Source: Patescibacteria group bacterium (lineage in GTDB: Bacteria > Patescibacteriota > Microgenomatia > Curtissbacterales > GWA2-41-24). Taken from it: a stretch of 64,000 bases of DNA. The position numbers and the translations under genes are program-made. The stretch is taken from contig JBBTUN010000004.1 in NCBI GenBank assembly GCA_038063735.1, forward strand, positions 190,921-254,920, written 5' to 3'. Under the pieces are notes generated by a model. The model was not told the DNA's origin, searched no databases, and was given only the letters and a program-made list of their open reading frames with translations. Of this stretch, positions 1,431-64,000 are shown piece by piece (the stretch's first letter is position 1; each line of letters begins with the position of its first letter).

Positions 1431-1461
1431 TATGAAAAAAAACACAAAGGTTTTTAACGGA

Positions 1462-2556: not shown

Positions 2557-2674
2557 TTTTAGTCTACAAAAATCAACATCAAGAAATCAAATAACGCCTG
2601 CGACAATTTTTTAAAATAGATCTGGTTTTTTTAAGAAGTAGAAACGTTTAAACCTAAATTGTATACTTCAACTT

Positions 2675-8997: not shown

Positions 8998-9833
8998 TGG
9001 ACAAATTAATATCTGTCATAATTCCCGTTTACAATGAACAAGACAGCCTAAAGGGCTGTTTGGAATCATTAAGTAAACAATCATACAAACCTGTCGAGGT
9101 CATAGTTATAGACGACGGATCAACTGACAAATCGCTAGAAATTGTAAAAAAATCCAAAGCAATCCTTTTAAAACAAAGCCACGGGGGCCCTGGGGTGGCA
9201 AGAAATTTAGGGGCTCAAAACGCTCGAGGGAGCATTCTTGTTTTTGTAGACGCCGATATGGTTTTCGAAAAGAATTTTATAAAAGATTTAACGGAGCCGA
9301 TAGCCAAAAGAGAAACGATCGGAACATTTTCAAAAAATGAATATGTAATCAATCATAATAACCCATGGTCAGTTTGTTGGAATATGAATAGAAATTGTCC
9401 GCCGGAGAAAATGATTCCCGAAAGTTACCCCGAGACTGCGCCGGTTTTTAGGGCAATTCTTAAAAGTGAATTTCAAAAAGTTGGTGGTTTTGAAACCACG
9501 GGGGATTACACGGACGATTGGTCACTATCCCTTAAACTTAATCTAAAATCCACACTGGCAAAAGGTGCCAAATATTATCACAAAAATCCATCAACCCTAA
9601 AAGAAATTTGGAAACAAGCCAGATGGATCGGCAAAAACAAATTTATTACAGGTAACATTCCACGGAAATTAAAATCAATTATTCTATACAATCCAATGGC
9701 TTCAATCTTTATAGCAGTATTAAAATCTTTTACTCACGCAAATCCGCGCTTTGTAATTTTCAAGCTAGTTTATGATTTTGCGGTAATTTGTTCCGTTTTA
9801 GAATCAACCGTAAACAAAAACAAATATAAATGA
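8997..9833 (+). CDS. Glycosyltransferase family 2
   Basis: ISVIIPVYNE...VIVIDDGSTD...FVDADM motifs. Confidence 0.7.
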   Translation: MDKLISVIIPVYNEQDSLKGCLESLSKQSYKPVEVIVIDDGSTDKSLEIVKKSKAILLKQSHGGPGVARNLGAQNARGSILVFVDADMVFEKNFIKDLTEPIAKRETIGTFSKNEYVINHNNPWSVCWNMNRNCPPEKMIPESYPETAPVFRAILKSEFQKVGGFETTGDYTDDWSLSLKLNLKSTLAKGAKYYHKNPSTLKEIWKQARWIGKNKFITGNIPRKLKSIILYNPMASIFIAVLKSFTHANPRFVIFKLVYDFAVICSVLESTVNKNKYK

Positions 9834-11263
9834 TTGCGCCAGTTTTATTAATTGGATTAATCTTAAGACTTGTTAGTCTTGACCAGAGTCTTTGGCTTGA
9901 TGAAGGAATAAATGCAACTTTTGCGCGTTCCTTAAGCTACAGCAAATTGATCTTTAGTTATCCTTTGGGTGATTTTCATCCACCGCTCTATCACGTAATA
10001 TTAAAATCGTTCATATCACTATTTGGCTCTTCAGAAATCTCCCTTAGAATACCATCCGTCATTTTGGGCGTAATGACAGTTTTTATAACATATTTAATAG
10101 GCAAAAAACTTTACGACAAAAAAACCGGTGTTATTGCAGCTCTGCTTATAGCGACAGGCCCCCTGCATATTTATTATTCCCAAGAAGCAAGAATGTATAT
10201 GCTGGCAGCTTTTCTTGCCAGCTTATCCGTATATTTTTTTGTATCACTTTTAATAAAAGATAGGCTCCTCTTGTGGGTAGGCTTTATTTTGTCAACTGCA
10301 TTAATGCTTTATAGTGATTATCTTCCGTACATACTTTTGCCTGTATACGTTTTATTTTTAATAGTCTCACGTAAAAAATTTGCTAAAAATACCTTAAAAT
10401 CTTTTATTCCTGCATTCTTGTTAATATTGCTGTTAATTGTTCCCTGGCTTCTCATGCTACCACAGCAATTAAAGGTAGGTTTATCCGCATCGGCTGCTTC
10501 TCCGGCTTGGTCTGGCGTCGTTGGTAGCTCGAGTATTAAAGATCTTGGTTTAGCTTTCGTAAAGTTTGCAATAGGGAGAATCTCAAACGACAATAATTTG
10601 TCATACGCCCTTCTCTTTTTGCCAATTGGGCTTTACTTTTCATTTTTGTTTTTAATTTCAACTTTAAGGCTAACGCGCATTAGATCATTCTTATGGTTCT
10701 ACTTATTGCTCCCTCCGGTAGTTGCGTTTTTGATATCTTTTTTTGTTCCTGTTTTTTCCTATTTCAGAATGTTATTTATTTTACCGGCGTTTTATATATT
10801 GCTCGCCGCAGGAATTAACAACATTAACTGGTCACTACCTACGAGGACATTTCTGTCATTGGCTCTTATAATAAATTTAACATCAACCTTCATTTATTTT
10901 GCCAACCCAAAATTCCAAAGAGAAGATTGGAAAAATGCAACTAAGTATGTCACTGCCAACTCGGATTCAAAAACATTGGTTTTGTTCGAGTCTAACTTTT
11001 CAATGCCGCCTTTTGACTACTATAATAATGGCGCTGTCGAGGCAAGAGGTGCCCTTGAAAGCTTTGATCCCACCCAAGGGAATGTCGTTCAAAATATAAC
11101 TAGTTACACCCAAAACAAAAACAAAGTATTTCTCTTTCAGTACCTGTCACCAATAACAGACCCTCAGGGCTTTGCTTTTCAATCGCTTATCGACCTGCAC
11201 TTTATCAATACAAAAACCGATAATTTCCAAGGAGTTGGATTTGTTTACGAATTTGTAAAATGA
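9830..11263 (+). CDS. GT39/ArnT-like polytopic membrane glycosyltransferase
   Basis: 477 aa multi-TM; first extracytoplasmic loop with LWLDEG motif typical of ArnT/PMT family. Confidence 0.6.
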   Translation: MIAPVLLIGLILRLVSLDQSLWLDEGINATFARSLSYSKLIFSYPLGDFHPPLYHVILKSFISLFGSSEISLRIPSVILGVMTVFITYLIGKKLYDKKTGVIAALLIATGPLHIYYSQEARMYMLAAFLASLSVYFFVSLLIKDRLLLWVGFILSTALMLYSDYLPYILLPVYVLFLIVSRKKFAKNTLKSFIPAFLLILLLIVPWLLMLPQQLKVGLSASAASPAWSGVVGSSSIKDLGLAFVKFAIGRISNDNNLSYALLFLPIGLYFSFLFLISTLRLTRIRSFLWFYLLLPPVVAFLISFFVPVFSYFRMLFILPAFYILLAAGINNINWSLPTRTFLSLALIINLTSTFIYFANPKFQREDWKNATKYVTANSDSKTLVLFESNFSMPPFDYYNNGAVEARGALESFDPTQGNVVQNITSYTQNKNKVFLFQYLSPITDPQGFAFQSLIDLHFINTKTDNFQGVGFVYEFVK

Positions 11264-11282
11264 ATAAATATGCATCATCTTT

Positions 11283-12032
11283 ATGAATTTAAACGTTGAG
11301 AAAAATTTGAGAAATTTTTTCGATAAGTATTTTTGGGGCCAGCATCCAGAAGCTGCTTTGCGTTACGCCCCTGTTGTTTCGGAAATTAAAAAAGCAAAAC
11401 TGCAAAATTCAAAAATACTTGAAATTGGATCCGGCTCTTTGGGCATCACCCCTTATTTTAAAAAGAGGATAGATGGAGTTGACATTGATTTCGCTGGTCC
11501 AAAAAGTGACTATTTGAATAAAATCAAAGGAAGTGGATCAAAATTGCCTTTTCGCAAAAATACTTACGATGTGTCAATATCTGTTGACGTTTTGGAACAC
11601 ATTTTGCCTACTGACAGAGAAAAAGCGATTTTTGAAATGATGAGGGTTACAAAAAAATTGGCGATCATCGTTGTTCCTTGCGGAAAAGGCGCAGAAGAAC
11701 AGGATAGGCAACTAAACATGTATTGGCAAAAACTTATGAAAAGTAAAAATAAATTTCTAACTGAACACGTAGAAAATGGCTTGCCCAAAGCAGATGAAAC
11801 GCTTGTTTACATCGACCGCGCCAAAAGGCTCCTTAACAAAAATGCAACAGTAACGTCATACCCTAATCTAAATTTATTTGTTAGAAATGTGCTTATGAAA
11901 ACATGGATTACCAACAACAAGTATATTTACTACCTTTACCTAAAAGGTTATTTATTTGCAGTCCCAATTTTAAAATTTTTCAACTTTTCGAAGGCTTATC
12001 GACGCGTGTTTGTGATAAAATTCGCGTATTGA
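11283..12032 (+). CDS. Class I SAM-dependent methyltransferase
   Basis: ILEIGSGSLG glycine-rich SAM motif and DVSISVDVLEHI motif II. Confidence 0.6.
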   Translation: MNLNVEKNLRNFFDKYFWGQHPEAALRYAPVVSEIKKAKLQNSKILEIGSGSLGITPYFKKRIDGVDIDFAGPKSDYLNKIKGSGSKLPFRKNTYDVSISVDVLEHILPTDREKAIFEMMRVTKKLAIIVVPCGKGAEEQDRQLNMYWQKLMKSKNKFLTEHVENGLPKADETLVYIDRAKRLLNKNATVTSYPNLNLFVRNVLMKTWITNNKYIYYLYLKGYLFAVPILKFFNFSKAYRRVFVIKFAY

Positions 12033-13162
12033 AAATAGCAATCGATGTATCTCAAATTGTTTATCAAACAGGTGTATCACGTTACACAGAGAACTTAGTC
12101 GAGTCATTGCTCAAAGTCGACAATAAAAACGATTATCTCCTCTTTGGAACATCACTTCGACAGCTCCCTAGACTAAACAAGCTTAAAAAAAAATTTGCAG
12201 CTCTTGAGAATGTCCAGTTCAAATTTTTTCCTTTTCCAATTGGCTTTTTTGAAATTATTTTCAACAAAATTCACCTAATTAAGCTTGAAAAGGTTATAGG
12301 CAATTTTGATATTTTACACACCTCCGATTGGATTGAGCCGGCGATAAATCAGAATGAGTCAAAGAAGATAACCACGATTCACGATGTGGTTCCTTATCTT
12401 TTCCCATCTTCCCTGCCAAGGAGGATACTCAAAAACCAAGAGGTACGTCTAAAACTTGTCAAAAAAGAATCCGATTTAATAATTGCTGTATCAAATTCAA
12501 CAAAAGAAGATGTTGTTAAATTTTTAGAAATTCCAAATGAAAGAATAAGAGTAATAAACAATGCCGCATCGCCAGCATTTAAGCCCCAGCTAGAGGAAAA
12601 AATCAACGAGGTTTTATCTAAATTCAAAATAAAAAAACCGTATATTCTCTCAGTAGCAACGCAGGAACCACGGAAAAATATACAAAAACTTGTGGATGCT
12701 TTTGAAAAGATTAATAAAGCAAAACCAGAACTTAATTTAGTCTTAACCGGAAAATACGGGTGGGGTCCGGCGCTGGATGTTGTCCCAAACGTAATCCAGA
12801 CAGGTTTCGTAAAAGAAGAAGAATTAATATCTCTTTATGCCGGTTGCGCTGTTTTTGTTTACCCATCTCTTTATGAAGGTTTTGGTTTGCCCGTGTTGGA
12901 GGCCATGGCTTGTGGGGCTCCGGTTATCACATCTAATAATTCGTCACTTGTCGAAATTGCCAAAGACGCAGCAATTCTCATTGACCCCAGGAGCGAAGGA
13001 CAACTGAAAAAAGCGCTTGAGATCATTCTTAATTTGGATACCGAGGACCGTCAAAAAATGGTCAGAGCAAGCCTAGATCGCGCAAGGCAGTATTCCTGGT
13101 CTAAAACGGCAAAAGAAACCTTAAAAGTCTACGAAGAGTTAGCAAGAATCATTGTCAGATGA
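12029..13162 (+). CDS. Glycosyltransferase family 4 (probable TTG start overlapping upstream stop, TTGA)
   Basis: EGFGLPVLEAMACGAPVITSNNSSL motif; GT4-like N-terminus begins at LKIAIDV (TTG at 12029), upstream 42 aa of the tracked ORF are not GT-like. Confidence 0.7.
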   Translation: MKIAIDVSQIVYQTGVSRYTENLVESLLKVDNKNDYLLFGTSLRQLPRLNKLKKKFAALENVQFKFFPFPIGFFEIIFNKIHLIKLEKVIGNFDILHTSDWIEPAINQNESKKITTIHDVVPYLFPSSLPRRILKNQEVRLKLVKKESDLIIAVSNSTKEDVVKFLEIPNERIRVINNAASPAFKPQLEEKINEVLSKFKIKKPYILSVATQEPRKNIQKLVDAFEKINKAKPELNLVLTGKYGWGPALDVVPNVIQTGFVKEEELISLYAGCAVFVYPSLYEGFGLPVLEAMACGAPVITSNNSSLVEIAKDAAILIDPRSEGQLKKALEIILNLDTEDRQKMVRASLDRARQYSWSKTAKETLKVYEELARIIVR

Positions 13163-13225
13163 AAACATCTCCCGTCAAGCTATAATTTCGTAGAAATTAC
13201 ATGAGTTTACGAATATAATTAAATT

Positions 13226-14323
13226 ATGTTAATAGGTCTAGATGGAAACGAAGCAAACGTCAAAAACAGAGTTGGCTCCGGTCAATACGCCTACTCCATG
13301 CTGGCACAATTTGCCAAAAATAAAAGCCACGATTTTATTGTTTATTTAAAAGAGAAACCACTCTCGGATTTGCCAACCAAAACGTCAAATTATAAATACC
13401 AGGTCTTTGGGCCTACAAGGCTTTGGACACAATTTGCCTTGCCTATTAAGCTCACATTCTCGTCAAAAATCGACCTGTTCTTTACACTTGGTCATTACGG
13501 CCCGCGTTTTTCCCGAGTTCCATACGCTATAACAATCTTTGATCTTTCGTATCTGCATTTTCCAGAACTTTTTAACAAAGACGATCTTTATCAGCTAATC
13601 AACTGGTCCAAATATTCAATTAAAGCCGCAAAGCACATTTTTGCAATTTCAACCTCTACCAAAGACGACATAATCAAAAATTACGATATAAATCCAAATA
13701 AAATCTCCATAACACACATGGGGTATAACGAAGAGCTTTTCAAACTACAGCCAACAGCAAAAATTAAAAAAGTTAAAGAAAAATACGCAATTACAGGAGA
13801 CTACATAATTTTCGTGGGCACGCTGCAGCCACGCAAAAACGTTGAGAGCCTTTTAAAAGCCCTAAAATTAATAGACCTGGGTATTAAGCTGGTTGTTGTA
13901 GGTAAAAAAGGGTGGTTATTTGACTCTATTTTTAAAAAAGTTAGAGAATCAAAACTCGAGGCAAACGTAATTTTTACGGACTATGTTACTCAGCAGGAAC
14001 TGCCAGCCTTAATTTCCGGAGCTAAACTATATGTTTTACCTTCGCTCTACGAAGGATTTGGCATTCCGGTTATCGAGGCTCAAGCCTGCGGAGTACCGAC
14101 TGTGGTATCAAACACATCCAGCTTGCCTGAGGTAGTAGGCAAGAGTGGAGTATTAATAGACCCTACAGATTCCAATTCTATTGCAAAGGGAATTAAAAAA
14201 ATTCTTTCAAGCGAAAAATTATCTCAAGATTTGGTTAAAATGGGCTACGAAAACGTAAAGCGCTTCTCCTGGGAAAAATGCGCCGCCGAAACTCTCAAAG
14301 TTCTGGAATCACTAAACCGATAG
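13226..14323 (+). CDS. Glycosyltransferase family 4
   Basis: EGFGIPVIEAQACGVPTVVSNTSSLPE motif. Confidence 0.75.
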   Translation: MLIGLDGNEANVKNRVGSGQYAYSMLAQFAKNKSHDFIVYLKEKPLSDLPTKTSNYKYQVFGPTRLWTQFALPIKLTFSSKIDLFFTLGHYGPRFSRVPYAITIFDLSYLHFPELFNKDDLYQLINWSKYSIKAAKHIFAISTSTKDDIIKNYDINPNKISITHMGYNEELFKLQPTAKIKKVKEKYAITGDYIIFVGTLQPRKNVESLLKALKLIDLGIKLVVVGKKGWLFDSIFKKVRESKLEANVIFTDYVTQQELPALISGAKLYVLPSLYEGFGIPVIEAQACGVPTVVSNTSSLPEVVGKSGVLIDPTDSNSIAKGIKKILSSEKLSQDLVKMGYENVKRFSWEKCAAETLKVLESLNR

Positions 14324-14335
14324 TAAAGTGGCAAT

Positions 14336-14364
14336 TTGCCCAAAAACTGAACCCATAGTACAAT
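14336..14364 (+). promoter_or_regulatory. Weak promoter candidate upstream of the acetyltransferase gene
   Basis: TTGCCC, 17-nt spacer, TACAAT (14359-14364). Confidence 0.25.
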
Positions 14365-14366
14365 AA

Positions 14367-14999
14367 TTGGTAAAGTTAACCGCCATTGTTTATATTAAAT
14401 GTATGAAGGACCGAATGGGCAAAGACCTATCTTCAACTGAAATCGCTGCAAAAGCGGCGAGTCGCATTAATTGGATCTTAATGGATTTTTGGCTGTACAT
14501 TCTCAATCGTCTTGCTTATAACGTACCCTTCCACTTTATTCGCAGATTTTTCTTTGTGATATCTGGAATGAAAATGGGAAAAGATTCGTTTATCCATATG
14601 TGGTCGCGTGTTTATAACCCCGCAGGCATAGAAATCGGCGAAGGCACAATAGTTGGCGACCACGCATTCCTAGACGGCCGTGCACCGCTTATCATTGGAA
14701 ACCATGTCGATATCGCCTCTCAAGTTTTAATTTACAACAGTGAACACGATGTTCATTCCAGCGGATTCGATCCACGAGAAGAGCCTGTGGAAATTGGCGA
14801 CTACGCGTTTATAGGGCCAAGAGTAACGATTTTGCCTGGAGTTAAAATAGGTAGAGGAGCAATAGTTGCAGCCGGCGCAGTTGTAGTAGAAAACGTCGGT
14901 GACTTTGAAATAGTTGGTGGGGTACCCGCCAAAAAAATCGGGGAGAGAAAAAACAAGGATCCGCACTACAAACTTGGCCGCGCCCGTCTTTTTCAATGA
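14367..14999 (+). CDS. Hexapeptide-repeat (left-handed beta-helix) sugar O-acetyltransferase, WcaF/WbbJ-like
   Basis: Repeated [LIV]G-x4 hexapeptide units: IEIGEGTIVGDHAFLDG...VEIGDYAFIGPRVTILPGVKIGRGAIVAAGAVV. Confidence 0.7.
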   Translation: MVKLTAIVYIKCMKDRMGKDLSSTEIAAKAASRINWILMDFWLYILNRLAYNVPFHFIRRFFFVISGMKMGKDSFIHMWSRVYNPAGIEIGEGTIVGDHAFLDGRAPLIIGNHVDIASQVLIYNSEHDVHSSGFDPREEPVEIGDYAFIGPRVTILPGVKIGRGAIVAAGAVVVENVGDFEIVGGVPAKKIGERKNKDPHYKLGRARLFQ

Positions 15000-15868
15000 T
15001 TCCAGCAATCTTTTTATTTGCACTGGTATTAGGTGGAGCAGGCTCGGCGCTCATTAAATTTGGTGGCAGCCAAATCAATCCAATTGCCCTCGTTTTCTTT
15101 CGGGCACTCGTTTCACTTATTATTGTGCTGCCCTTTGTAAACAGGCAGGAAGTGACCACAGCTATTAAAAACTCAAAAACATTAATAGCAGCAGGATTAT
15201 TGTTTGCTCTAAACTGGATATTTTTTGCATACGGTATTCAAAGAACTAATGTGTTCGTCGGTCAGCTCATCTATGTCCCCACGTCGCTGATCGTAGCAGG
15301 ATTAGGCTACTTCCTTTTAAGGGAAAAATTAACAAAAATACAAATAATAGGACTTTTACTCACCTTAGTCGGAATGCTTATTTTATTTCTTGGTGCGCTT
15401 GGATCTCAAGAAACATTCTCCTTGGGCACCCCGCTCGGCAACTTTTTGGTCATGGGCGGCCTTATCTCATGGTCACTGTATATAATAATTACTAGAAAAG
15501 TAAGTGACAAATTTAGCCCTCTTAGCATCATATTCGTAGATTTTTTCCTGACAACAATACTATCCGGCATCTTGTTAATTCCTGCATCTGGACAAACAGA
15601 TTTTTTGCTATTGAAGTTTGAACCAAACTTAATTCTTTCAATTATCGCAGCCGCTGTTATCTCTTCCGTGGGATTTTTTATTTTGAGTCAATGGCTTATA
15701 AAAAATACCTCAGCCTTTATATCTTCCACTTTTATTTATCCAACTACACTGTCTGCGTTGGTATACGGAATAATTTTTTTTGGGGAGAGATTGTCCTTGG
15801 TAATAATTTTAGCTAGTATTTTAATACTGGTTGGCGTTTTTCTTGGTACAAACCTATCCATAAATTAA
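14996..15868 (+). CDS. EamA/DMT-superfamily transporter
   Basis: 290 aa, ~10 TM helices in two repeated halves. Confidence 0.5.
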   Translation: MIPAIFLFALVLGGAGSALIKFGGSQINPIALVFFRALVSLIIVLPFVNRQEVTTAIKNSKTLIAAGLLFALNWIFFAYGIQRTNVFVGQLIYVPTSLIVAGLGYFLLREKLTKIQIIGLLLTLVGMLILFLGALGSQETFSLGTPLGNFLVMGGLISWSLYIIITRKVSDKFSPLSIIFVDFFLTTILSGILLIPASGQTDFLLLKFEPNLILSIIAAAVISSVGFFILSQWLIKNTSAFISSTFIYPTTLSALVYGIIFFGERLSLVIILASILILVGVFLGTNLSIN

Positions 15869-15876
15869 GAAGTAAA

Positions 15877-16770
15877 ATGGACGTAACCGTAATTATTGTC
15901 AACTGGAATACAAAAAAACTTCTTCAGGATTGCCTTGAATCCATTTATAAATTTACTAAAGGCATCTCGTTTGAGGTAATAGTTGTCGACAACGCTTCGG
16001 AAGATGGCAGCCAAACAATGGTAAGGCAAAAATTTCCCCAAGTTAAATTAATCCAAAACAAAAACAACGCAGGTTTTGCAACAGCTAACAATCAAGGCAT
16101 AAGAGAGGCAAAAGGAAAATATATTTTTCTCCTTAACTCAGACGCGTATTTGATAGAAAATTCGCTTAAAAAACTTCTGGAAATTGGCGATTCAAACAAA
16201 AATTTAGGGGTTCTGTGCCCCCTGCTCCTTAACGAAGACAAAAGTATTCAACAATCTGTCGGATTTTCTCCCAACTTATGGCGGGTATTTTTATGGATGA
16301 CTTTTATAGATGATCTGCCTTTTGGCTATCTCTTAAAACCATTTCATGTTGATCATGATGCTTTTTACAAAAATTCCCAGGAAATAGATTGGGCAAGTGG
16401 CGCCGCAATCTTAATTCCAAAAACTGTCATAAAAAAAGCAGGTTTACTTGACGAAAAAATCTTTATGTATGGTGAGGATGTCGAGTGGTGCTATCGCATT
16501 AAAGTTTCAGGCTTTTCCAATTATTTTTCACCGAAAACCAAGATCATTCACATTGGCAGGGGATCCAGCGGTAAAATTGCCAAAAATGCTTTCTTGGGAG
16601 AATACATAGGTCTCATTTACTTTTACAAAAAGCACAGGGGAGTTATTTCTTTGCAATTACTGCTAGTCTTCCTTAAAATAGGAGCACTGGCAAGAATTTT
16701 TATCTTCTCTATTTTGGGGAGAAAAGAGCTTGCCAAAGTTTATGAAGAAGCTTTTAAAGTGGCTGGATGA
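15877..16770 (+). CDS. Glycosyltransferase family 2
   Basis: VTVIIVNWNT...VVDNASEDGS...NSDAY motifs. Confidence 0.7.
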   Translation: MDVTVIIVNWNTKKLLQDCLESIYKFTKGISFEVIVVDNASEDGSQTMVRQKFPQVKLIQNKNNAGFATANNQGIREAKGKYIFLLNSDAYLIENSLKKLLEIGDSNKNLGVLCPLLLNEDKSIQQSVGFSPNLWRVFLWMTFIDDLPFGYLLKPFHVDHDAFYKNSQEIDWASGAAILIPKTVIKKAGLLDEKIFMYGEDVEWCYRIKVSGFSNYFSPKTKIIHIGRGSSGKIAKNAFLGEYIGLIYFYKKHRGVISLQLLLVFLKIGALARIFIFSILGRKELAKVYEEAFKVAG

Positions 16771-56671: not shown

Positions 56672-57766
56672 ATGTTAATAAAACCGGACGTTAATAGATT
56701 CGCAAAAATAAAAGTTTTAGGCATAGGTGGCGGTGGAACTAACGCCCTAAACTCCATGATTACCCAGGCGCAAATTCAAGGTGTAGATTTCGTGGCGGTT
56801 AACACCGACCAACAGCACTTGCTAGCATGTCTGGCCCAAACAAAAGTCCAGATAGGGGACGGTTTAACTAAAGGTTTAGGAGCCGGTGCCAATCCCGATA
56901 TCGGCAAAAAGGCGGCAGAAGAATCGCTGGAAAGAATTAAAGATGTTGTAACTGGTGCCGATATGGTTTTTTTAACATATGGTGCCGGTGGAGGCACAGG
57001 CACAGGCGCCGGCCCGGTTATCGCCGAAATGGCTAAAAAGCTGGGCATCCTAACAGTTGCAGTTGTTACCAAACCGTTCGGTTTTGAAGGGACCCGAAGA
57101 ATGATTGTTGCAGAGGACGGCATCGACAGTCTCAGGGACAAAGTAGACACCCTTATTGTAATTCCAAATCAAAAACTCCTGGAAGTTGTCGACAAAAATG
57201 TGTCGCTCTTGGAAGCATTTAAACTCGCAGACTCAATTCTTTCCCAGGGTGTACAAGGCATTTCGGACATCATAGTTATGCCAGGTCTAATTAACGTCGA
57301 TTTTGCAGATGTCAAGGCCATTATGACAAACGCTGGCTCAACTTTAATGGGTGTAGGAACCGCCTCCGGAGAAAACAGGGCAACAACGGCAGCCAGAACA
57401 GCCATTGCTTCACCGCTTCTGGACTCATCAATAGATGGCGCCAGGGGAGTCCTCTTCAACATAACAGGCGGCTCGGATATGGCCATGAGTGAAGTTGACG
57501 AAGCCGCAAAAGTTATCACCAGTCAGGCAGACCCGGATGCCCAGATTATCTTTGGGGCTGCCATCGACGAAAAGTTAATCGATCAAATAAAAGTAACGGT
57601 AGTAGCAACCGGTTTTGACGAAACTAGAAGAAAGTATGTCCAGATAACTCCGCCAGACCTTTCCGTTAGCATGACTCAGCAACTGGAAAACCAAGACACC
57701 TCAATCGATGGCCAAATAGACGAAGACGAATTCGACGTTCCCACATTCCTACGTCAGATAAGATAA
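56672..57766 (+). CDS. ftsZ: Cell division GTPase FtsZ
   Basis: IKVLGIGGGGTNALNSM and tubulin signature GGGTGTGAGPVIAE. Confidence 0.95.
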   Translation: MLIKPDVNRFAKIKVLGIGGGGTNALNSMITQAQIQGVDFVAVNTDQQHLLACLAQTKVQIGDGLTKGLGAGANPDIGKKAAEESLERIKDVVTGADMVFLTYGAGGGTGTGAGPVIAEMAKKLGILTVAVVTKPFGFEGTRRMIVAEDGIDSLRDKVDTLIVIPNQKLLEVVDKNVSLLEAFKLADSILSQGVQGISDIIVMPGLINVDFADVKAIMTNAGSTLMGVGTASGENRATTAARTAIASPLLDSSIDGARGVLFNITGGSDMAMSEVDEAAKVITSQADPDAQIIFGAAIDEKLIDQIKVTVVATGFDETRRKYVQITPPDLSVSMTQQLENQDTSIDGQIDEDEFDVPTFLRQIR

Positions 57767-57906
57767 TCTCCTTTTAAAATCTAAAAAGAAAGTTAAAACT
57801 AAGGTAGTTCATAGTGTTAGTTACTATAACACGCTCCCTCGTCGCAACAAGACGAAAAATAGGGGAGTAGAAATGTGGATTTGCTTGTCCCAATAGGATA
57901 AACCTA

Positions 57907-57935
57907 TTGACAAGCTCTTAGTTTTTTGTTAATAT
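57907..57935 (+). promoter_or_regulatory. Near-consensus sigma70 promoter upstream of integrase
   Basis: TTGACA (57907-57912), 17-nt spacer, TAATAT (57930-57935); AGGGAG RBS 57986-57991. Confidence 0.5.
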
Positions 57936-57994
57936 GAGAATTAATCCTCGCAAGATTTTTCTCAACCACAAGCTACTCCCCAAAAAGGGAGTAA

Positions 57995-59011
57995 ATGCAC
58001 ATACCAGAAGAAGATTTTAAGTCTTATATAACTATCAAGCTCAGTCTCGCCCCAAATTCTGTGCGCCACGATATGAGCAGGCTTAGGCTAATTAACCAAT
58101 GGTTTTCAAACAAGGAACTCACAAAAGAGAACATCGAAAAGTATTTTTACGAGAGAAAACAAGATGGCCTTGTAAATAATTCACTTAATACTTACCACAC
58201 AGTATTTCGACACATTCAGGGCTACTGCAAGGATAGAGGTCTTCAGGCTGATTTTTATGAGGGCTTCAAATCTTTTAAAAAGACAAAACCACACATTGTA
58301 ATTTTTACAACAGAGGAGATAGAGAAGTTGTTAAGCATAAAACTTTCTTATGGTCATTTTCGAGGCAAAGACGTGTCCTTTTTAGATTTCCGCTATAACA
58401 CTCTGACTAGGTTTCTAGCAGAAACAGGTTGCAGGTTCGGAGAAGCAGCTACATTAAAAATTAAATACTTGGACTTGGGCAGCGGCAAAGCAACTTTTGT
58501 AGATACTAAAACGAATGAGAATAGAACGGCCTTCATTACAGGACCACTCATTGCAGGAATCAAACAAATTACAGATGGTTGTGATCCTGATGATTACGTC
58601 TTTCGCAACGCCGTTGAGAAGCCTATGAGACCCCAAGAATATATTCCAGATTTAAAAAAGCGGGCTACTGCGGCTGGCATTTTGAATTTGAAAAAAGTAC
58701 ACCCACATAACTTTAGACATACATACGCAACAATGCTGCTTGAGGCTGGTGTGCAAATAACAGAAGTGTCAAAACTTTTAGGTCACAAAGATATTCAAAC
58801 AACCTACGATACTTATATGCATCTGGCTGATCGAACATTACAAAGAGCTGCGATGAGGTTGCCATTGATAAGGGGGAGTGTAGCGCCTGTTGAGACTATC
58901 AAAACAATAAAAGAAACACTAGAGAACTTCCATTTGGAGAGTGATCAGCGCTTTGTTTATATAATTTCCGAATCCGACGGTGAATTTAAATTCTCACTAA
59001 GAGCAAAGTAA
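57995..59011 (+). CDS. Tyrosine site-specific recombinase / phage-type integrase
   Basis: Box I TGCRFGEA (Arg), HNFRHTYAT (H-x-x-R), LGHKD, catalytic Tyr in TYDTYMHL. Confidence 0.85.
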   Translation: MHIPEEDFKSYITIKLSLAPNSVRHDMSRLRLINQWFSNKELTKENIEKYFYERKQDGLVNNSLNTYHTVFRHIQGYCKDRGLQADFYEGFKSFKKTKPHIVIFTTEEIEKLLSIKLSYGHFRGKDVSFLDFRYNTLTRFLAETGCRFGEAATLKIKYLDLGSGKATFVDTKTNENRTAFITGPLIAGIKQITDGCDPDDYVFRNAVEKPMRPQEYIPDLKKRATAAGILNLKKVHPHNFRHTYATMLLEAGVQITEVSKLLGHKDIQTTYDTYMHLADRTLQRAAMRLPLIRGSVAPVETIKTIKETLENFHLESDQRFVYIISESDGEFKFSLRAK

Positions 59012-59109
59012 AAGGACTAGTCGTAAAACCAGTCCTTTATCTCGTTTCACAAGCTACTCCGTTATTTCTCCTCGCAAGAGTATAAAACGGCAGCCTCAGT
59101 TAATCTCAT

Positions 59110-60513
59110 TTAAATTTCACCTTTTTCTTCGGCCTTTTCAAAATCCTCTATAAGCTTGTCTGAAGTGTATTTCTGTAAACTCGCTGGTAACTCTTCGGGT
59201 GGAATAAACCTCACAGGGACAAATTTGCTTGCAGCTGCAACTGAATTTGACACTGCGCTTCTTATTTCTTTACATTGATCTGAAAGAAACCAACTTAGGT
59301 CTTCTTTTAAAGTTATGTTTTTCTCTTGACCAGTAGCCCCGTATCCCTCGTTAATGTCTACGATACCCAGCACTTTTAATGCCTCCATTTCCTTATGCGC
59401 AGTTGTGTGTGAACAGTTAAGTGTTCCCATAACTTGATTTGTGAGTAGTTCGCCGTTGTTGTCTACAAGAAGTCGAAAAAGGTTTGTTCGGGTCCTAGGA
59501 GCACTGTCAAGAGTCACATCGATGACTAATGCTAGGTCACCTTGGTCAATTTGTCTTCGGCCTGTAGCCACAGAGTGCCCCCTGGCCAAGTTATAAAGCA
59601 GTTGATTTATTCTATCCGGTCTTTCAATAATTGGATCAGAGGACTTATATGATTCTTTGTCCTCCTTAACCCAACGATCTTCCCAAACATTAATCGTCGC
59701 CCTTAGCCTTGCAAGCAGTTTTGCACATCGACCGATAACAACTAAAAATTCCCGCGGGTCCTTAGACTTGTCCCAGTCTATACCGTTAGGTAGAGCATTC
59801 CAGATTTTATCAACGTGTTCTCGCGTAGCAGTTTTGCAAAGCTCCTGCTTTTGCAACCAAGACGCGCTTGTTAGCTGATCTGCTAGCTCATTTTCATCTT
59901 TTTCCTTACTTCTTATTTGGCTAAAAAATAACCTAGAACCAAGATTTCCTGACATTTTCCAGACACGAGGAGGAATCGGTGTAGAACCAGCAAGGAGCAT
60001 AAAGTTATATTCGCCCTTGTAACCTCTTTTGCCGTGTAAACCACTATCAAGTTCTAGTCCCTCACCATCAAGAACCCTGGTTAAAACGCCCAAGTTTTTA
60101 AGAAGATCTTCCTCGCGCTCTCCAAAGATTGTCGCTAAATCACGAATAATCAATACTTTGTTTTTAATTTTAGGCAGTAGATCTATCTCCTCTAGTTTCT
60201 CTTTTTTCACATTAGCTGCGTGAGAAACAAATGAAGCAGGGGTGAAGTTGTCTGTTGTGTAAACCAATTCTGTTAAATCTGAAAACATATTTAAAGTGAT
60301 GGTCTTGCCAGCACTAGGCACGTCGACAAAAACTAACGCAAAAGGGTTTTTAATATCGTTAATTTTCAGCTGTGATATAACACTAAGACCGATCTCGGCA
60401 GGCCTTACGAGATCGGGAAAGTTATTTTCTATTGTCTTAATCCAAGCCGTATATTGGTTTGTATTTTCCATAATAAAAACTCCCGTTTCAGGCGGAAACC
60501 CAAACGGGAGCAT
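59110..60513 (-). CDS. P-loop NTPase, putative mobile-element replication/primase-helicase-associated protein
   Basis: Deviant Walker A VDVPSAGKTITL and Walker B-like KVLIIRDL; 467 aa; adjacent to integrase. Confidence 0.4.
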   Translation of the reverse strand: MLPFGFPPETGVFIMENTNQYTAWIKTIENNFPDLVRPAEIGLSVISQLKINDIKNPFALVFVDVPSAGKTITLNMFSDLTELVYTTDNFTPASFVSHAANVKKEKLEEIDLLPKIKNKVLIIRDLATIFGEREEDLLKNLGVLTRVLDGEGLELDSGLHGKRGYKGEYNFMLLAGSTPIPPRVWKMSGNLGSRLFFSQIRSKEKDENELADQLTSASWLQKQELCKTATREHVDKIWNALPNGIDWDKSKDPREFLVVIGRCAKLLARLRATINVWEDRWVKEDKESYKSSDPIIERPDRINQLLYNLARGHSVATGRRQIDQGDLALVIDVTLDSAPRTRTNLFRLLVDNNGELLTNQVMGTLNCSHTTAHKEMEALKVLGIVDINEGYGATGQEKNITLKEDLSWFLSDQCKEIRSAVSNSVAAASKFVPVRFIPPEELPASLQKYTSDKLIEDFEKAEEKGEI

Positions 60514-60650
60514 TTATCCGCCTGAATTTTCTTAATGAAATCACGACTAAAGGTTAAAGATCAAAGTTGAAAAGTTAAAAAAACGAGGCTAGTTTTTTCT
60601 GTTATATATTACGACTTATAAAAAATGTAGAAAAAATTAGTATATTGAGA

Positions 60651-61073
60651 TCAATTTAAAACACCGATATTTATAGGAGTTAAATATATCTTTTTATTCT
60701 TAGTTTTTAATTTATAGCCAATCATTTTGAGTTTTTTATTTATATTGATAATTAACTGTTTACCATTGTTGACACCTACTTCTTTTTTAATATCCACAAT
60801 GCTCAAGGTTGTATCTCCTGCGATTTTTAAAATAAATTTACTATGTACTTTGTTTAGGCTAGTAAGTTTCAATTTACCCTTAAGGGTGCTTAAAAACAGC
60901 TTTTTTCTTTGTCCCGGGGTGGTTATAGATTCAATGCTTAAGTTTAAAGCTTTAACTTCTTGCTTTAGTAATTCAATGTCGATAGCTAAACTTTCTAGTG
61001 ATAGATTTTTATAGTTAGCTCCGATAGACATCAAAACAGCTATTTGTGCGGACTTGAATGTATTCTTATCCAT
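60651..61073 (-). CDS. Hypothetical protein (Lys-rich, AT-rich gene)
   Basis: 140-aa ORF, no recognised motifs. Confidence 0.25.
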   Translation of the reverse strand: MDKNTFKSAQIAVLMSIGANYKNLSLESLAIDIELLKQEVKALNLSIESITTPGQRKKLFLSTLKGKLKLTSLNKVHSKFILKIAGDTTLSIVDIKKEVGVNNGKQLIININKKLKMIGYKLKTKNKKIYLTPINIGVLN

Positions 61074-61088
61074 ATTTAATCTTGATTT

Positions 61089-61673
61089 TTAAGGCTCATC
61101 GATAGTATCTACAGAATCAAGTGAATCAAGTGCGTCTACCATCTCTTCATAAGTCTCACCTGAATAGTATTTTGCTTTTCTAATGTCACTATTGGCTTGT
61201 TCAATATTATCGTTAGCTTCCTGCAAAGCAGTCTTTAAGTTCCCAACCTGCGTATCTAATTCATCAGCTTCTGATGATATCTCGTCATATTCGTTATACC
61301 AGCCCTTTGCTGTTTTCCCATCATATTCGCCAATCGAACCTAAACCATTTCCTACACTACTTAAAAACCACCAACCAATCAGTAAAGCAATACCGATAAC
61401 AAAAATGAGTACACCCCAGGTGAAACAGATCCCAACAATCTCAAGCGTCTCGTCGCGTTTGTGGACCAGCCAATCTCTAAATCGCCCCTTAGGCACGTTG
61501 CTAATCGTGATGCCAGCCAAAATAATCCAATATACAGGTTTCAAACCATAATTAAATAATAGTGAAAATAATAAAAAAGTGGCCAAAGATAAAAAAGCAA
61601 TCCACTGAAACCAATGGTTAATTGTTTCTTTTTTTGATCGGACAATTGGTCCTGGGTTATCTTTATTATTCAC
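61089..61673 (-). CDS. Hypothetical membrane protein with C-terminal acidic coiled-coil region
   Basis: 3 predicted TM helices then heptad-like region LDTQVGNLKTALQEANDNIEQANSDIRKAK. Confidence 0.3.
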   Translation of the reverse strand: MNNKDNPGPIVRSKKETINHWFQWIAFLSLATFLLFSLLFNYGLKPVYWIILAGITISNVPKGRFRDWLVHKRDETLEIVGICFTWGVLIFVIGIALLIGWWFLSSVGNGLGSIGEYDGKTAKGWYNEYDEISSEADELDTQVGNLKTALQEANDNIEQANSDIRKAKYYSGETYEEMVDALDSLDSVDTIDEP

Positions 61674-61684
61674 TTAATTTACTC

Positions 61685-62317
61685 CTACATACACTTAATC
61701 CCCATTGGGACACCGCCGTTATTCAAGCAATCCATCCTCAAATCGAATTCCAAATCTTTCTGCTTTTTTTCAATGACATCAATTTTAGACTCAAGATCTG
61801 TTGTATCAATACTCTGAACAGGTGTTTCGTAGGTGTAATTATTAGTTGGCTTGCTTTTTTCGGCTAAACCCTGCTCCCTTAAGGATTCAAAGTAAACTAA
61901 ATCTCCCTTATTTAGATCAAGATAAATTGCGAATCCACGAATTGTAGAATTTCTGGATTTTTCAACAAGAAATTTATCAATCTCTGCTTGTGAGTAGTTC
62001 TGCTTGAGTGCGTTCTTCACAAATGGTTCTGTTTTACTCGGATCCAGTTTTTCCCCAAATTTTTCGTACATTTCACTTTTGGATTTGGAGTTAGATGCTG
62101 AATAAACATACGCCGCAACTTTGAATGCCCTATCAGACGGGTCGGGAACTACTAATACGGCTGGAGTGCTATTTTCAGTTACAACCGCTGAAATTGCTTG
62201 ACCGCTCGAGGTTTTGTCGTCTTTTCTCAATATTTGAAATCTCCAAAATACAAAAGCTCCTAGTAATAACGTAATGGCAAGAATAGTGATTGTTTTCATA
62301 ATTCCTTTGATAAACAT
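61685..62317 (-). CDS. Hypothetical secreted or membrane-anchored protein
   Basis: N-terminal signal/TM MKTITILAITLLLGAFVFW; C-terminal CLNNGGVPMGIKCM. Confidence 0.3.
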   Translation of the reverse strand: MFIKGIMKTITILAITLLLGAFVFWRFQILRKDDKTSSGQAISAVVTENSTPAVLVVPDPSDRAFKVAAYVYSASNSKSKSEMYEKFGEKLDPSKTEPFVKNALKQNYSQAEIDKFLVEKSRNSTIRGFAIYLDLNKGDLVYFESLREQGLAEKSKPTNNYTYETPVQSIDTTDLESKIDVIEKKQKDLEFDLRMDCLNNGGVPMGIKCM

Positions 62318-62329
62318 AAAAAGTGACTA

Positions 62330-63025
62330 TCACCAATAATTGGGTGGGGAGCTACCTAGTATTTTCTCCTCACCATAATTTGATGTCACTTTAACTCCAA
62401 AAATTGGGAATTGAGGATTACCCCTATTAATCGTGCATACGCTTCCATTGATTAGATCTGTTCCGTCACCGTTATTGCTTACTACTTGCCCCCCACCAGA
62501 ACTAGATTCGACAAACTTACATTTTTGAAGATTCTTATTGGCATTTATTGTCACAGTATTGCCATCAGTAGTCATACTTGCTTCAAATGTGGAATTATCA
62601 GGAGATGATGTCGGGCTTGGGTTAGGTGATGAACTGCTGCTCGGGGTAGGGCTTGCACTTTGTGTATTATTTGAATCCTGAGAATTGCTGGCTGAGTTTG
62701 AGGTAGCGTTATTGTTGCCGTTACTGGTCTGATTATTGTTTGTCTGGTTATTCGGTGAAATAGATGGGGTTGGAGATTTTTTGTTTAAAATTGGGCTTGA
62801 GGTCGGGCTTGGGTTTGTATTTTGAGTTGATAATCCTGCAACCTCTCCGTTAATGTTCTCAGGCACATTGGTTTCTACAATTTCCTGTTTGTTTTTATGT
62901 GATATAGAGTTGTAAAGAAAAATTCCACTAGGAATCGTGCCGATGCTAATTAGAAATGCAAGGACAAACAGTTTAGCCTTGATTCCCAGTTCAAGGAAAT
63001 AACTTTTTAATTTCAAAATAGACAT
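62330..63025 (-). CDS. Hypothetical secreted protein with long Ser/Asn/Pro/Thr low-complexity linker
   Basis: N-terminal TM/signal, ~100-aa S/N/P/T-rich region, C-terminal Cys-containing domain. Confidence 0.3.
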   Translation of the reverse strand: MSILKLKSYFLELGIKAKLFVLAFLISIGTIPSGIFLYNSISHKNKQEIVETNVPENINGEVAGLSTQNTNPSPTSSPILNKKSPTPSISPNNQTNNNQTSNGNNNATSNSASNSQDSNNTQSASPTPSSSSSPNPSPTSSPDNSTFEASMTTDGNTVTINANKNLQKCKFVESSSGGGQVVSNNGDGTDLINGSVCTINRGNPQFPIFGVKVTSNYGEEKILGSSPPNYW

Positions 63026-63102
63026 ATTTGTTTATTGGGGCAGAAGAAATGGCAGGAGATTTTGTATTATAGGTTTAAACCAACCTAAAATGCAAGTAGT
63101 AG

Positions 63103-63154
63103 TTTGGCACGGATGCCAAAGACATTTTTGCTCCAATTTGGCATAAATGCCAAT
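63103..63154. promoter_or_regulatory. Twin palindromic operator candidates TTTGGCA-N4-TGCCAA(A) in the divergent region between the XRE gene and the minus-strand operon
   Basis: TTTGGCAcggaTGCCAAA 63103-63120; TTTGGCAtaaaTGCCAA 63137-63153 overlapping the XRE start codon; centres ~34 bp apart. Confidence 0.45.
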
Positions 63155-63383
63155 GATGGCAATAAAAGTTGACGAAAGAGCTGTTAAAAAGCAGTTTGGG
63201 GCTAAATTAAGGCAGTTAAGGCAAGACAGGAAGCTTTCACAAGAGGGAGTGGCACTTGAGGCAGGACTAGACTTAACAACTATTAACGAAATAGAAATGG
63301 GAAGCCGAAACCCCTCTCTATTAACTATAGCTAAAATTTCAAAAGCCTTAGGGGTTAAGATTAAAGATGTTTTCTCTTTTTGA
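63147..63383 (+). CDS. XRE-family helix-turn-helix transcriptional regulator (Cro/CI-like)
   Basis: LRQLRQDRKLSQEGVALEAGLDLTTINEIEMGSRNPSLLTIAKISKALGV matches HTH_XRE pattern. Confidence 0.7.
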   Translation: MPMMAIKVDERAVKKQFGAKLRQLRQDRKLSQEGVALEAGLDLTTINEIEMGSRNPSLLTIAKISKALGVKIKDVFSF

Positions 63384-63408
63384 GGAGATTTTTAAGCATT
63401 ATCTAGAT

Positions 63409-63714
63409 TTATTCATCATTTTGCTTAGGTATGTAGATCACAGGCATACTAAATAATTCAGCTTGCGATGTTAAATCCGTTGACTGTTTGGGCATACCGT
63501 CCATACGGTTCATTATCTCTTTCATAGCACTCACATTTCCTTTTAAAGCCTGATTCACCAAGCTTTTGGCAACTAACTCTTTTATACTCTCTCCGCTGTT
63601 TACTTTTTTCTCTACTGCTTCCTGAAGAGTGCCCAACCACGACCAATCACGCTTTGGCGCTCCCTTGAGATTCCCACTTTGTCCTTTTCGGAATGATGTT
63701 GAAGATATAGCCAT
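63409..63714 (-). CDS. Phage-associated DUF5681-like protein
   Basis: N-terminal FRKGQSGNLKGAPK resembles the F-KGQSGNPKGRPKG signature of DUF5681 proteins. Confidence 0.4.
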   Translation of the reverse strand: MAISSTSFRKGQSGNLKGAPKRDWSWLGTLQEAVEKKVNSGESIKELVAKSLVNQALKGNVSAMKEIMNRMDGMPKQSTDLTSQAELFSMPVIYIPKQNDE

Positions 63715-63720
63715 ATGAGC

Positions 63721-63742
63721 CCTGTTATTTCCCTGTTATTTG
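63721..63742. repeat. Perfect 11-nt tandem direct repeat CCCTGTTATTT x2 immediately upstream (minus-strand sense) of the DUF5681-like gene
   Basis: 63721-63731 and 63732-63742 identical. Confidence 0.5.
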
Positions 63743-64000
63743 TTCGTATTTATTTAGCTTTATTATACTGGATATGAGGAATGGGTGACAGTATTGACTG
63801 TGTGTACTCAACTTGTACACGCTTATGTTGTTTTGTGCGAGATAAAAGTGGGCAACATTTTCTGTTGAAGTAAGTTTATAATGTATAATCTGCATTAGAT
63901 TTATGCCAAGAGACGATTTCCCAATAGGTTTACAGCGAATAATAGGGCAGATACGTTACAGGCCAACCCTAACTTCATTTCAGGCTGTCACAGAAGCTGC

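Follow-up and report, generated by a model that had tools for sequence, protein, structure and literature searches.

What has been inserted behind ftsZ at this locus, where does it begin and end, and by what means did it come to be there? The question is raised by the right-hand end of a 64,000-nucleotide (nt) stretch of contig JBBTUN010000004.1 (hereafter the window) from a member of the Patescibacteria, where the dcw cluster gives way, directly 3' of ftsZ, to genes for a tyrosine integrase, a replication-type NTPase, an XRE-family regulator and a DUF5681 protein, all of which had been called in a first-pass annotation and are confirmed here by Pfam matches or fold comparison. We conclude, with a probability that we put at about 0.82, that these genes belong to an 8,443-bp integrative element, termed E1, which was inserted into the last codons of ftsZ by its tyrosine integrase and whose attachment (att) sites, boundaries and target can be mapped. 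That annotation had proposed an element of ~6 kb with an intergenic target 3' of ftsZ; both proposals give way, as the true target lies inside ftsZ, 22 nt ahead of the stop codon, and E1, at 8.44 kb, ends 2.2 kb past the window, where an integrase-less island of 2.06 kb (E2) follows. It was right that no tRNA stands at the junction: the window contains neither a tRNA nor a tmRNA gene, and Rfam gave no match in 57000-64000 and one sub-threshold chance match in the 5 kb past the window.

The DNA past the window was read from a 21.9-kb contig (L001/L088, found by exact-protein look-up), which is identical to the window over a 7,251-nt overlap and runs 9.7 kb further. L001 lies on contig ERR3858121_2227, and positions beyond the window are given as window-equivalent coordinates, that is, the L001 coordinate plus 56749. 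Six samples hold these genes (ERR3858120, ERR3858121, SRR32696680, SRR32696708, SRR32696710 and SRR32696712), and a near-identical contig to this genome's comes from Hainich groundwater. By the relatives of its FtsZ the bacterium is Curtissbacteria-like, within the Microgenomates. The target gene and the sites that delimit E1 and E2 are as follows.

56672..57766, plus strand: ftsZ, 364 aa, the target gene (open reading frame; Pfam Tubulin and FtsZ_C).
57738..57744, plus strand: attL crossover core TTCCCAC, in the ftsZ codons V-P-T of the C-terminal peptide; the identical 7-mer stands at attR1.
57745..57994, plus strand: P' arm of attL, comprising the element-borne ftsZ 3' end and the int regulatory region; 96.1% identical to the sister element L116.
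About 66057-66180 (window-equivalent): attR1 arm.
66181-66187 (window-equivalent; L001 9432-9438): attR1 core TTCCCAC, 2.2 kb past the window end.
Ending at 66209 (window-equivalent): displaced ftsZ tail at attR1.
68238-68244 (window-equivalent): attR2 core TTCCCAG.
Ending at 68266 (window-equivalent): second displaced tail.

As in other integrative elements, the same core stands at both ends of E1, and int starts 251 nt after the attL copy. The final ~45 nt of ftsZ (57724-57768) recur in diverged form at window-equivalent 66166-66210 and 68224-68268 (blastn E = 7.8e-5), both copies being in frame with a stop codon and reading ...VGIPTFLRQIR* and ...LGIPRFLRQIR*, as against ...FDVPTFLRQIR* in ftsZ itself. 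Each displaced tail is preceded by a conserved arm of ~110 nt, two further copies of which lie behind ftsZ in a Curtissbacteria genome (L009); a search for the arm-plus-tail motif returned 10 contigs from metagenomes, 7 being separate from one another and from this genome, and no match in 2.9 million viral contigs. In all copies the arm and the bases through ...TAGGAAT(T/C)CCCA are conserved, and the differences beyond CCCA fall mostly at synonymous sites of TFLRQIR*, as one would expect of element DNA on the left joined to the displaced host end of ftsZ on the right. At the other end, the final 22 nt of ftsZ (57745-57766, codons TFLRQIR*) are supplied by the element, and the gene is colinear with the ftsZ of two related genomes (L107 and L116, below) only as far as the core. 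The element-borne core is flanked by inverted half-sites, CTTAGGAA-TTCCCAsN-TTCCTAAG, the usual layout of tyrosine-recombinase core sites.

The related genomes fix the point of insertion. An unoccupied site is found in a genome of another species (L107, part of a 765-kb contig; FtsZ 84% identical), where ftsZ is followed directly by a Phd/ParE island (Phd 79% identical), itself closed by a separate arm and tail. Rightwards from ATTCCCAC this genome is colinear with attR1 (58/75 identical, vs 38/74 for attL), and leftwards from the core it is colinear with ftsZ at attL (39/57, vs 25/56 for attR1); the switch of homology partner therefore places the breakpoint exactly at the 7-mer TTCCCAC, 57738-57744 / 66181-66187. 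The first-pass annotation had proposed a search for an empty site with a single copy of its 10-mer repeat: an empty site has surfaced, in a different species and not in this one, with its breakpoint at TTCCCAC and not at the 10-mer.

A sister of E1 occupies the same site in L116, whose host proteins FtsZ and FtsA are 90% and 84% identical to those of the window. Between the two elements, protein identity is 95% for the integrase, 100% for the XRE regulator, 79% and 78% for two small proteins of 140 aa (p140) and 210 aa (p210), and 65% for the DUF5681 protein; the sister has a different replication gene (AAA_25) and different distal cargo. Nucleotide identities to the window are given below.

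Host genes: ftsA 72.7%; ftsZ up to the core 78.7%; glyoxalase gene past the element 81.1%.
Element: P' arm (core to int start) 96.1%; int 90.9%; XRE gene 96.6%; attR arm 96.2%.

The jump at the core, from 78.7% to 96.1%, means that the integration module is younger than the divergence of the two hosts and was acquired horizontally, the element being more alike than its flanks.

The same location recurs among sampled members of the integrase family, in which 277 homologues were counted at E <= 1e-20. The seven relatives sampled, 56-95% identical, all lie within 1 kb 3' of ftsZ, and at five of the seven loci at least one displaced ftsZ tail follows downstream. One such tail each is present in L109, L111 and L113, where the core is identical at attL and attR within an element and varies with the host ftsZ sequence.

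L109, shared attL/attR core: ATCCCCACATT.
L111, shared attL/attR core: ATTCCCACATTCCT.
L113, shared attL/attR core: ATCCCCGC.

Two displaced tails follow ftsZ in L118, and none was found in the 10 kb examined of L117; the other ftsZ loci scanned have no duplicated tails. The cargo differs in every related element (SLFN/AlbA_2, DUF3800, TerB_N, zeta toxin, Fic, EamA, RidA). In other close relatives no integrase follows ftsZ, and only a few kb separate that gene from the EamA, glyoxalase and FabH orthologues on its downstream side.

Several points weigh against reading E1 as an integrative element that is excised and replicated. Every contig with these genes from the six samples shows the integrated form, with neither an excised circle nor an empty site in the same species, and exact-protein look-ups of FtsZ and Int gave occupied sites only; it is in another species, with FtsZ 84% identical, that the site is unoccupied. 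At attR2 the core is TTCCCAG, not TTCCCAC. The integrase is Xer-like and two-domained, with no obvious arm-binding domain despite the conserved 110-nt arm. No excisionase, origin, transfer or packaging gene was found in E1 with Pfam, PHROGs, NCBIfam and PADLOC, and the rep gene is the single pointer to replication after excision.

The integrase and the motifs that surround its gene are as follows.

57884-57914: palindrome containing the 10-mer TCCCAATAGG, within the P' arm.
57907-57935: near-consensus int promoter TTGACA-N17-TAATAT (promoter scan).
57945-57955: motif M2, TCCTCGCAAGA, upstream of int.
57967-57979: motif M1, CACAAGCTACTCC, upstream of int.
57995..59011, plus strand: tyrosine integrase, 338 aa (PF00589, E = 1.6e-28; phrog_1 integrase, E = 1.2e-48).
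59048-59060 and 59069-59079, plus strand: second copies of M1 and M2, 3' of int (exact 13-mer and 11-mer repeats).

The PF00589 match scores 100 bits against a cut-off of 27.1 and spans residues 107-279. In alignment to XerA (5hxy) the catalytic R, HxxR, H and Y are all kept, the paired segments being TGCRFGE with TGVRVGE, HNFRHT with HVLRHT, LGH with LGH, and the Y of TYMHL with that of IYTHL; the protein is predicted to recombine the att sites of E1. The promoter, M2, M1 and a 5' leader hairpin are conserved in an alignment of four attL regions. This hairpin (57973-57994, TACTCCCC-aaaaa-GGGAGTA) is predicted to sequester the ribosome-binding site of int and is kept with compensating changes in the four regions, which suggests translational control of the integrase.

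M1 and M2 recur in a fixed arrangement, M2-M1 upstream of int and M1-M2 after int or the int operon, in 4/4 elements examined; elsewhere they stand at 9950/9973 and 11062/11085 in L109, at 5427 and 6538/6559 in L111, and at 9949/9976 and 12029/12052 in L113. The copies co-vary within an element, L109 having TCCTAGTAAGA at both places. Homology with the L116 element stops exactly at the downstream M2 (59079), and the downstream pair may mark the end of the integration module, the motifs serving as protein-binding sites or as a module junction. As to the arms at the far end, those at L001 9308-9431 and 11364-11488 (window-equivalent 66057-66180 and 68113-68237) share a conserved hairpin, CCCAAGAATGG...CTGTTCTTCGGG, with one compensatory pair only among 10 sequences, and the ~110-nt arm holds three AAGAAT/ATTCTT repeats resembling the core half-site AGGAAT.

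Beyond int lie a replication gene with its operon, a divergent regulator and the DUF5681 gene.

59110..60513, minus strand: replication protein rep, 467 aa, an AAA+ ATPase of MCM-like type whose C-terminal region is winged-helix-like (homologues, AlphaFold2, Foldseek).
60651..61073, minus strand: p140, a soluble 140-aa protein just upstream of rep, part of the conserved backbone (79% aa identity and same position in L116).
61089..61673, minus strand: 194-aa membrane protein with 2-3 transmembrane segments and a coiled-coil C-terminus, variable (hydropathy).
61685..62317, minus strand: p210, a 210-aa protein with an N-terminal membrane anchor (transmembrane residues 1-19), part of the conserved backbone (78% aa identity to L116).
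62330..63025, minus strand: 231-aa protein, anchored in the membrane at its N-terminus, with a linker rich in S/N/P/T and a small C-terminal domain that contains Cys, variable; first gene of the rep operon.
63103-63120 and 63137-63153, between the rep operon and the XRE gene: palindromic operator-like sites TTTGGCAcggaTGCCAAA and TTTGGCAtaaaTGCCAA (inverted-repeat finder, hairpin scan).
63147..63383, plus strand: XRE-family helix-turn-helix regulator, 78 aa, or 76 aa from the second ATG (HTH_3, E = 8e-15).
63409..63714, minus strand: DUF5681 protein, 101 aa (PF18932, E = 1.4e-12; 65% aa identity and same position in L116).

The rep protein has no match in Pfam, PADLOC or PDB sequences and is placed by fold comparison alone. 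Its AlphaFold2 model (pLDDT 82, pTM 0.81) finds MCM2-7 and MCM8/9 as top PDB matches in Foldseek (E about 2e-6, with a TM-score of only ~0.4), RavA and Mg-chelatase being similar, and a Walker A motif (PSAGKT) and a Walker B motif (LIIRD) are present in the sequence. More than 1000 homologues occur in Patescibacteria, many with an N-terminal Toprim or Prim-Pol primase fusion. Pfam detects no such primase domain in the protein of the window, while many homologues 54-59% identical to it have one. The primase-fused family and the MCM-like fold together justify the label of replication protein, and on the model rep appears to be the helicase half of a primase-helicase family.

The operon runs in the order 231, 210, 194 and 140 aa, then rep, and its first three products have predicted membrane segments. 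The four small minus-strand genes had been taken for a separate cargo block. They form instead an operon between rep and the divergent XRE gene, with the 140-aa and 210-aa genes kept in L116, and since the same layout (XRE gene, small-ORF operon, rep, recombinase) recurs in rep elements with large serine recombinases, we regard them as part of a regulated rep operon. The observation that they have no recognisable family holds, none giving a match above the Pfam curated cut-off. Searches with Pfam, PHROGs, NCBIfam and PADLOC found nothing at curated threshold for these four or for the 234-, 194-, 266-, 167-, 73- and 181-aa proteins beyond the window. The 140-aa protein has no transmembrane segment. 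The 194-aa protein has only sub-threshold coiled-coil-type Pfam matches and is absent from L116 and all other loci; the 210-aa protein has 10 relatives in a full scan of 1.8 billion representative proteins; and the 231-aa protein has no homologue in related loci. The one family match of the last, a weak PADLOC match to PD-T4-6 (E = 1.7e-4), runs through the low-complexity linker and is read as spurious.

The two palindromes (TTTGGCA-N4-TGCCAAA) between the operon and the XRE gene would, from their sequence and position, serve as XRE operators. The spacer between rep and p140 (60514-60650) is the most AT-rich stretch of the region, with 29-31% GC in 600-nt windows, and is by position a candidate replication origin. 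The DUF5681 position is held by a Terminase_2 gene in one related rep element (L093), with no BLASTP similarity between the two products, and the DUF5681 model is weak (pLDDT 67), with no significant match in BFVD. An ORF of 56 aa on the minus strand at 63725-63895, absent from the gene calls of every contig and barely conserved in L116, is probably not a gene; a divergent promoter region is the likelier use of the stretch.

From the DUF5681 gene to attR extends the variable cargo slot, almost wholly outside the window, and E2 follows. The genes of the slot, E2 and the gene behind it are listed below.

63903..64000, continuing to window-equivalent 64607, plus strand: 234-aa gene, first of the cargo slot, holding the second copy of TCCCAATAGG.
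64609-65193 (window-equivalent): 194-aa gene.
65162-65962 (window-equivalent): 266-aa gene.
66188-68244 (window-equivalent): island E2, 2.06 kb, with Phd, ParE, and genes of 167 aa, 73 aa and 181 aa (minus strand), and its own arm.
68315-68500 (window-equivalent): DUF5678 gene, 61 aa.

In sister and related elements the slot carries defence-like or toxin genes. E2 sits between attR1 and attR2 and has no recombinase, the arrangement of a cis-mobilizable element (CIME), defined as an att-flanked, integrase-less island in tandem with an integrase-bearing element (PMC5704250). Its sequence indicates that the locus is a tandem accretion array, with E1 in front of an older E2 that has the same type of right end. 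By analogy with such arrays, E2 might be mobilised by E1, a possible product being that of attL x attR2.

The DUF5678 gene directly follows ftsZ in L009 and a tail in another genome (L104), and past it come a 193-aa gene, EamA, glyoxalase, a FabH-like gene and CutA1. It is flanked by a 14-nt exact direct repeat, AATCCCTCAATTTC (L001 11516-11529 and 11889-11902; window-equivalent 68265-68278 and 68638-68651), whose second copy reads ...IPQFLR... and is degenerate and core-like; the gene may be a third, minimal island instead of native DNA. A third degenerate ftsZ tail at window-equivalent 68639-68686 (...IPQFLRALKI...) was considered, and the match is too weak to call. The interval from ftsZ to the glyoxalase gene is hypervariable in the clade, at ~12.5 kb here (57767 to window-equivalent 70275), 5 kb in L009 (4706-9768), 7.3 kb in L107 (oriented copy, 617-7885) and 10.7 kb in L116 (reverse complement, 5334-16006), and contains toxin-antitoxin pairs (Phd/ParE, MNT/HEPN) and unknown genes, with lysA and an aminotransferase gene in addition in L009.

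From this arrangement we reconstruct the integration of E1, and infer its activity, its regulation, its replication after excision and its transfer. Through the integrase, an attP carried by the element was joined to an attB that lay in the closing codons of ftsZ, which encode the conserved peptide ...(I/V)PTFLRQIR*; the crossover fell in the 7-bp core TTCCCAC, and the previous 3' end of ftsZ was pushed to the far end of the element, behind the ~110-nt arm. The gene stays intact because attP carries its own TFLRQIR* codons. E1 entered in front of the older E2, and recombination of attL with attR1 would release E1, whereas attL with attR2 would release E1 and E2 together; the junctions predicted after excision of E1 are ...CTCCGTAGGAATTCCCACATTCCTACGTCAGATAAGATAATCTCC... 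for attP and ...GAATTCGACGTTCCCACTTTTTTACGTCAAATTCGATAATTTAGCC... for the restored attB. In the integrated state the XRE repressor and the two palindromic operators would hold the rep operon, with its three membrane-anchored and one soluble small genes, off. De-repression would lead to expression of rep, Int would excise the element and the circle would replicate in the manner of a plasmid.

Other accounts of the locus have to be weighed against this one. The first would make attL to attR2 (window-equivalent 57738-68244) a single composite element of 10.5 kb, with attR1 an internal, disused site. Tandem arrays of integrase-bearing and integrase-less units can transfer whole according to the literature on CIMEs and integrative and conjugative elements (ICEs; PMC5704250), and every contig of this species that spans the junction (L089, L102) has both parts. 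However, attR1 has the perfect core TTCCCAC and attR2 has TTCCCAG; moreover, in L116 the E1-type element stops at an arm of the attR1 type (96% identical) and is not followed by an E2, and L107 has an E2-type island without E1, from which it follows that the two occur separately. We therefore consider the composite improbable.

A second account turns the recombinase into a domesticated host enzyme resident beside ftsZ, which would stack integrase-less cassettes bearing arm-and-tail sites in the manner of an integron, with no self-mobile element at all. It would explain why the integrase is always ftsZ-proximal, why integrase-less islands (E2, two in L009, and that of L107) keep well-conserved arms, and why the integrase of L111 has very little beside it. 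Yet identity between the window and L116 is 91-96% for Int, the P' arm, the XRE gene and the attR arm and 73-81% for the flanks, and this excess over the flanks indicates that the integrase travels with the element. Close relatives (L008, L009, L107) lack an integrase at ftsZ, and the islands, unlike the promoterless single-ORF cassettes of an integron, which end in folded attC sites, are multi-gene units with their own promoter-like sites, and their arm hairpin has a single compensatory pair among 10 sequences. We see only a slim chance that the enzyme is a host resident.

The third account concerns the class of E1 rather than its ends, namely that it is a phage satellite, like the phage-inducible chromosomal islands, or a remnant prophage, using int, the XRE regulator, rep and DUF5681 to hijack the packaging of a helper phage. 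The size of 8.4 kb (satellites have about 8-15 kb) and the set of an integrase, a divergent repressor and a replication module are indeed those of satellites, and are shared with plasmid-like integrative elements. The DUF5681 protein matches PHROG families and its family has been found in a Salmonella phage virion proteome (PMC8954984), while a related rep element has a Terminase_2 gene in the corresponding place. Against this, DUF5681 is the only packaging-hijack candidate in E1, and it shows no similarity to the Terminase_2 protein and, in its weak model, no significant viral structural match; no known packaging-interference gene and no capsid, portal, large terminase or tail gene is found by Pfam or PHROGs, a sub-threshold scaffold-like coiled-coil match (E = 0.007) being all that appears; and the arm-plus-tail motif is missing from the viral contigs. 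This reading is, in our judgement, a long shot. The genes that define an ICE or an integrative and mobilizable element (IME), namely a relaxase, a coupling protein, a type IV secretion system or an FtsK-like protein, are likewise not detected among the E1 and E2 proteins by Pfam, PHROGs, NCBIfam or PADLOC; as the defining genes were sought and not found, we do not class E1 as an ICE, an IME or a prophage. It is most simply described as a site-specific integrative and probably replicative island, of an ordinary kind, with an unusual and precisely mapped target in a poorly studied lineage.

There remains the original proposal of a repeat-bounded element. The window does contain exactly two copies of the 10-mer TCCCAATAGG; the first lies where it was placed, at 57888-57897, ~100 bp upstream of int, and the second at 63919-63928, not 63929-63938, and of the two only the second is preceded by TT, the first following TG. 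As a single word, two copies in 64 kb are rare (1/100 shuffles), but the relevant question is the broader one of whether any 10-mer of the ftsZ-int spacer recurs downstream, and there TCCCAATAGG is not above chance. A scan of 280 nt of the spacer region against the 14.7 kb downstream turns up five longer exact repeats, of 11-13 nt, besides eight of 10 nt, and in 81% of trials even a shuffled spacer has one or more 10-mers in common with the 6 kb that follow. The first copy is the left arm of the imperfect palindrome at 57884-57914, overlapping the -35 box of the int promoter, and its region is unconserved among the four aligned attL regions; the second lies within codons 6-9 (DFPIG) of the 234-aa ORF, which has its start at 63903 and extends past the window end. 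The L116 element, with core-to-int-start DNA 96% identical to that of the window, has one copy and no second, the very case of a related genome having the same genes without the repeat that the first-pass annotation had named as telling against itself. The repeat is thus real and is not an att site, and the ~6-kb model in intergenic DNA is already refuted by the L107 breakpoint, the L116 identity jump, both at TTCCCAC inside ftsZ, and the single copy in L116, leaving it a negligible probability. Since the true attR falls beyond the window end, a generic repeat finder run on 57700-64000 returned no repeats above chance level. Nor does base composition single out the island: GC content is 29-44% in the element and 46-48% in ftsA/ftsZ, but 38-43% across the rest of the dcw region, so the contrast is not diagnostic.

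If E1 is the integrative element that we take it to be, it applies a known strategy, entry into a housekeeping gene at its 3' end, which is rebuilt in the process (as e14 in icd and ICESt3 in fda), to a new target, no report of ftsZ as an integration or attachment site having been found among open-access papers. The integrase probably recognises the codons of the FtsZ C-terminal peptide, among the most conserved short motifs of bacteria, and such a target would explain how one integrase family serves Microgenomates genomes labelled as Curtiss-, Gottesman- and Levybacteria. The DNA just after the dcw cluster emerges as a hypervariable stack of islands, related loci holding toxin-antitoxin and defence-like genes, and the arm-plus-tail motif is an exact delimiter of such islands in metagenome bins of the candidate phyla radiation (CPR). 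The cargo slots offer a defined place to seek new CPR defence genes, and an integrase with a defined and conserved attB could serve as a genetic tool for these bacteria, which have few. We offer, tentatively and with the odds against it, a broader idea: that arm plus tail is a portable site at which Microgenomates integrases capture, stack and re-mobilise multi-gene islands in trans at the ftsZ 3' end, as a large-cassette counterpart of the integron, and that E1 is a plasmid-like or satellite-like replicon shuttling between hosts. Were this so, the islands mobilised would include integrase-less ones with toxin-antitoxin and defence-type genes.

Among known systems, E1 resembles in gene content the integrated elements of archaea and the pSAM2-type actinomycete integrative and conjugative elements (AICEs), which combine an integrase, an MCM or primase-helicase replication protein and mostly unknown small genes, and for which a cycle of excision, replication and re-integration is presumed, as we propose here. 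These elements mostly target tRNA genes, and the AICEs carry FtsK-like transfer proteins, unlike E1; the rep family of E1 is moreover CPR-specific and has no Pfam model. Within the CPR, the serine-recombinase rep elements (L093-L098) have a rep protein 71-78% identical and the same order of XRE gene, small-ORF operon, rep and recombinase, with toxin-antitoxin or defence-like genes distal to the XRE gene. They differ in using a large serine recombinase and other target sites, with no ftsZ tails. In one of them (L096, 11575-13743) the large serine recombinase is called as a 722-aa product fused to Mg_chelatase domains, which suggests insertion in a comM-like Mg-chelatase gene.

Elements of the ICESt1/ICESt3 type and their CIMEs, to which the accretion-mobilisation model applies, occupy the 3' end of fda in Streptococcus thermophilus (PMC5704250). 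E1 is like them in using the 3' end of a protein-coding gene and in having a tandem neighbour that lacks an integrase but retains att sites, and unlike them in having an AAA+ rep gene where they have the relaxase, coupling protein and type IV secretion genes, none of which was found in E1. The closest mechanistic precedent is e14 and phage 21 in icd of Escherichia coli, where the prophage rebuilds the 3' end of the gene and leaves the fragment icdC (PMC13626634, citing Hill et al. 1989). The likeness is a close one: a tyrosine-integrase element enters the 3' end of a housekeeping gene and supplies a near-synonymous replacement end, and icdC corresponds to the displaced ...GIPTFLRQIR* tails of E1. 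The target here is ftsZ in a CPR host, with 22 nt replaced in place of the 100-plus nt of icd. E1 also differs in not being a lambdoid prophage and in a site that has been used serially, giving arrays of at least two islands.

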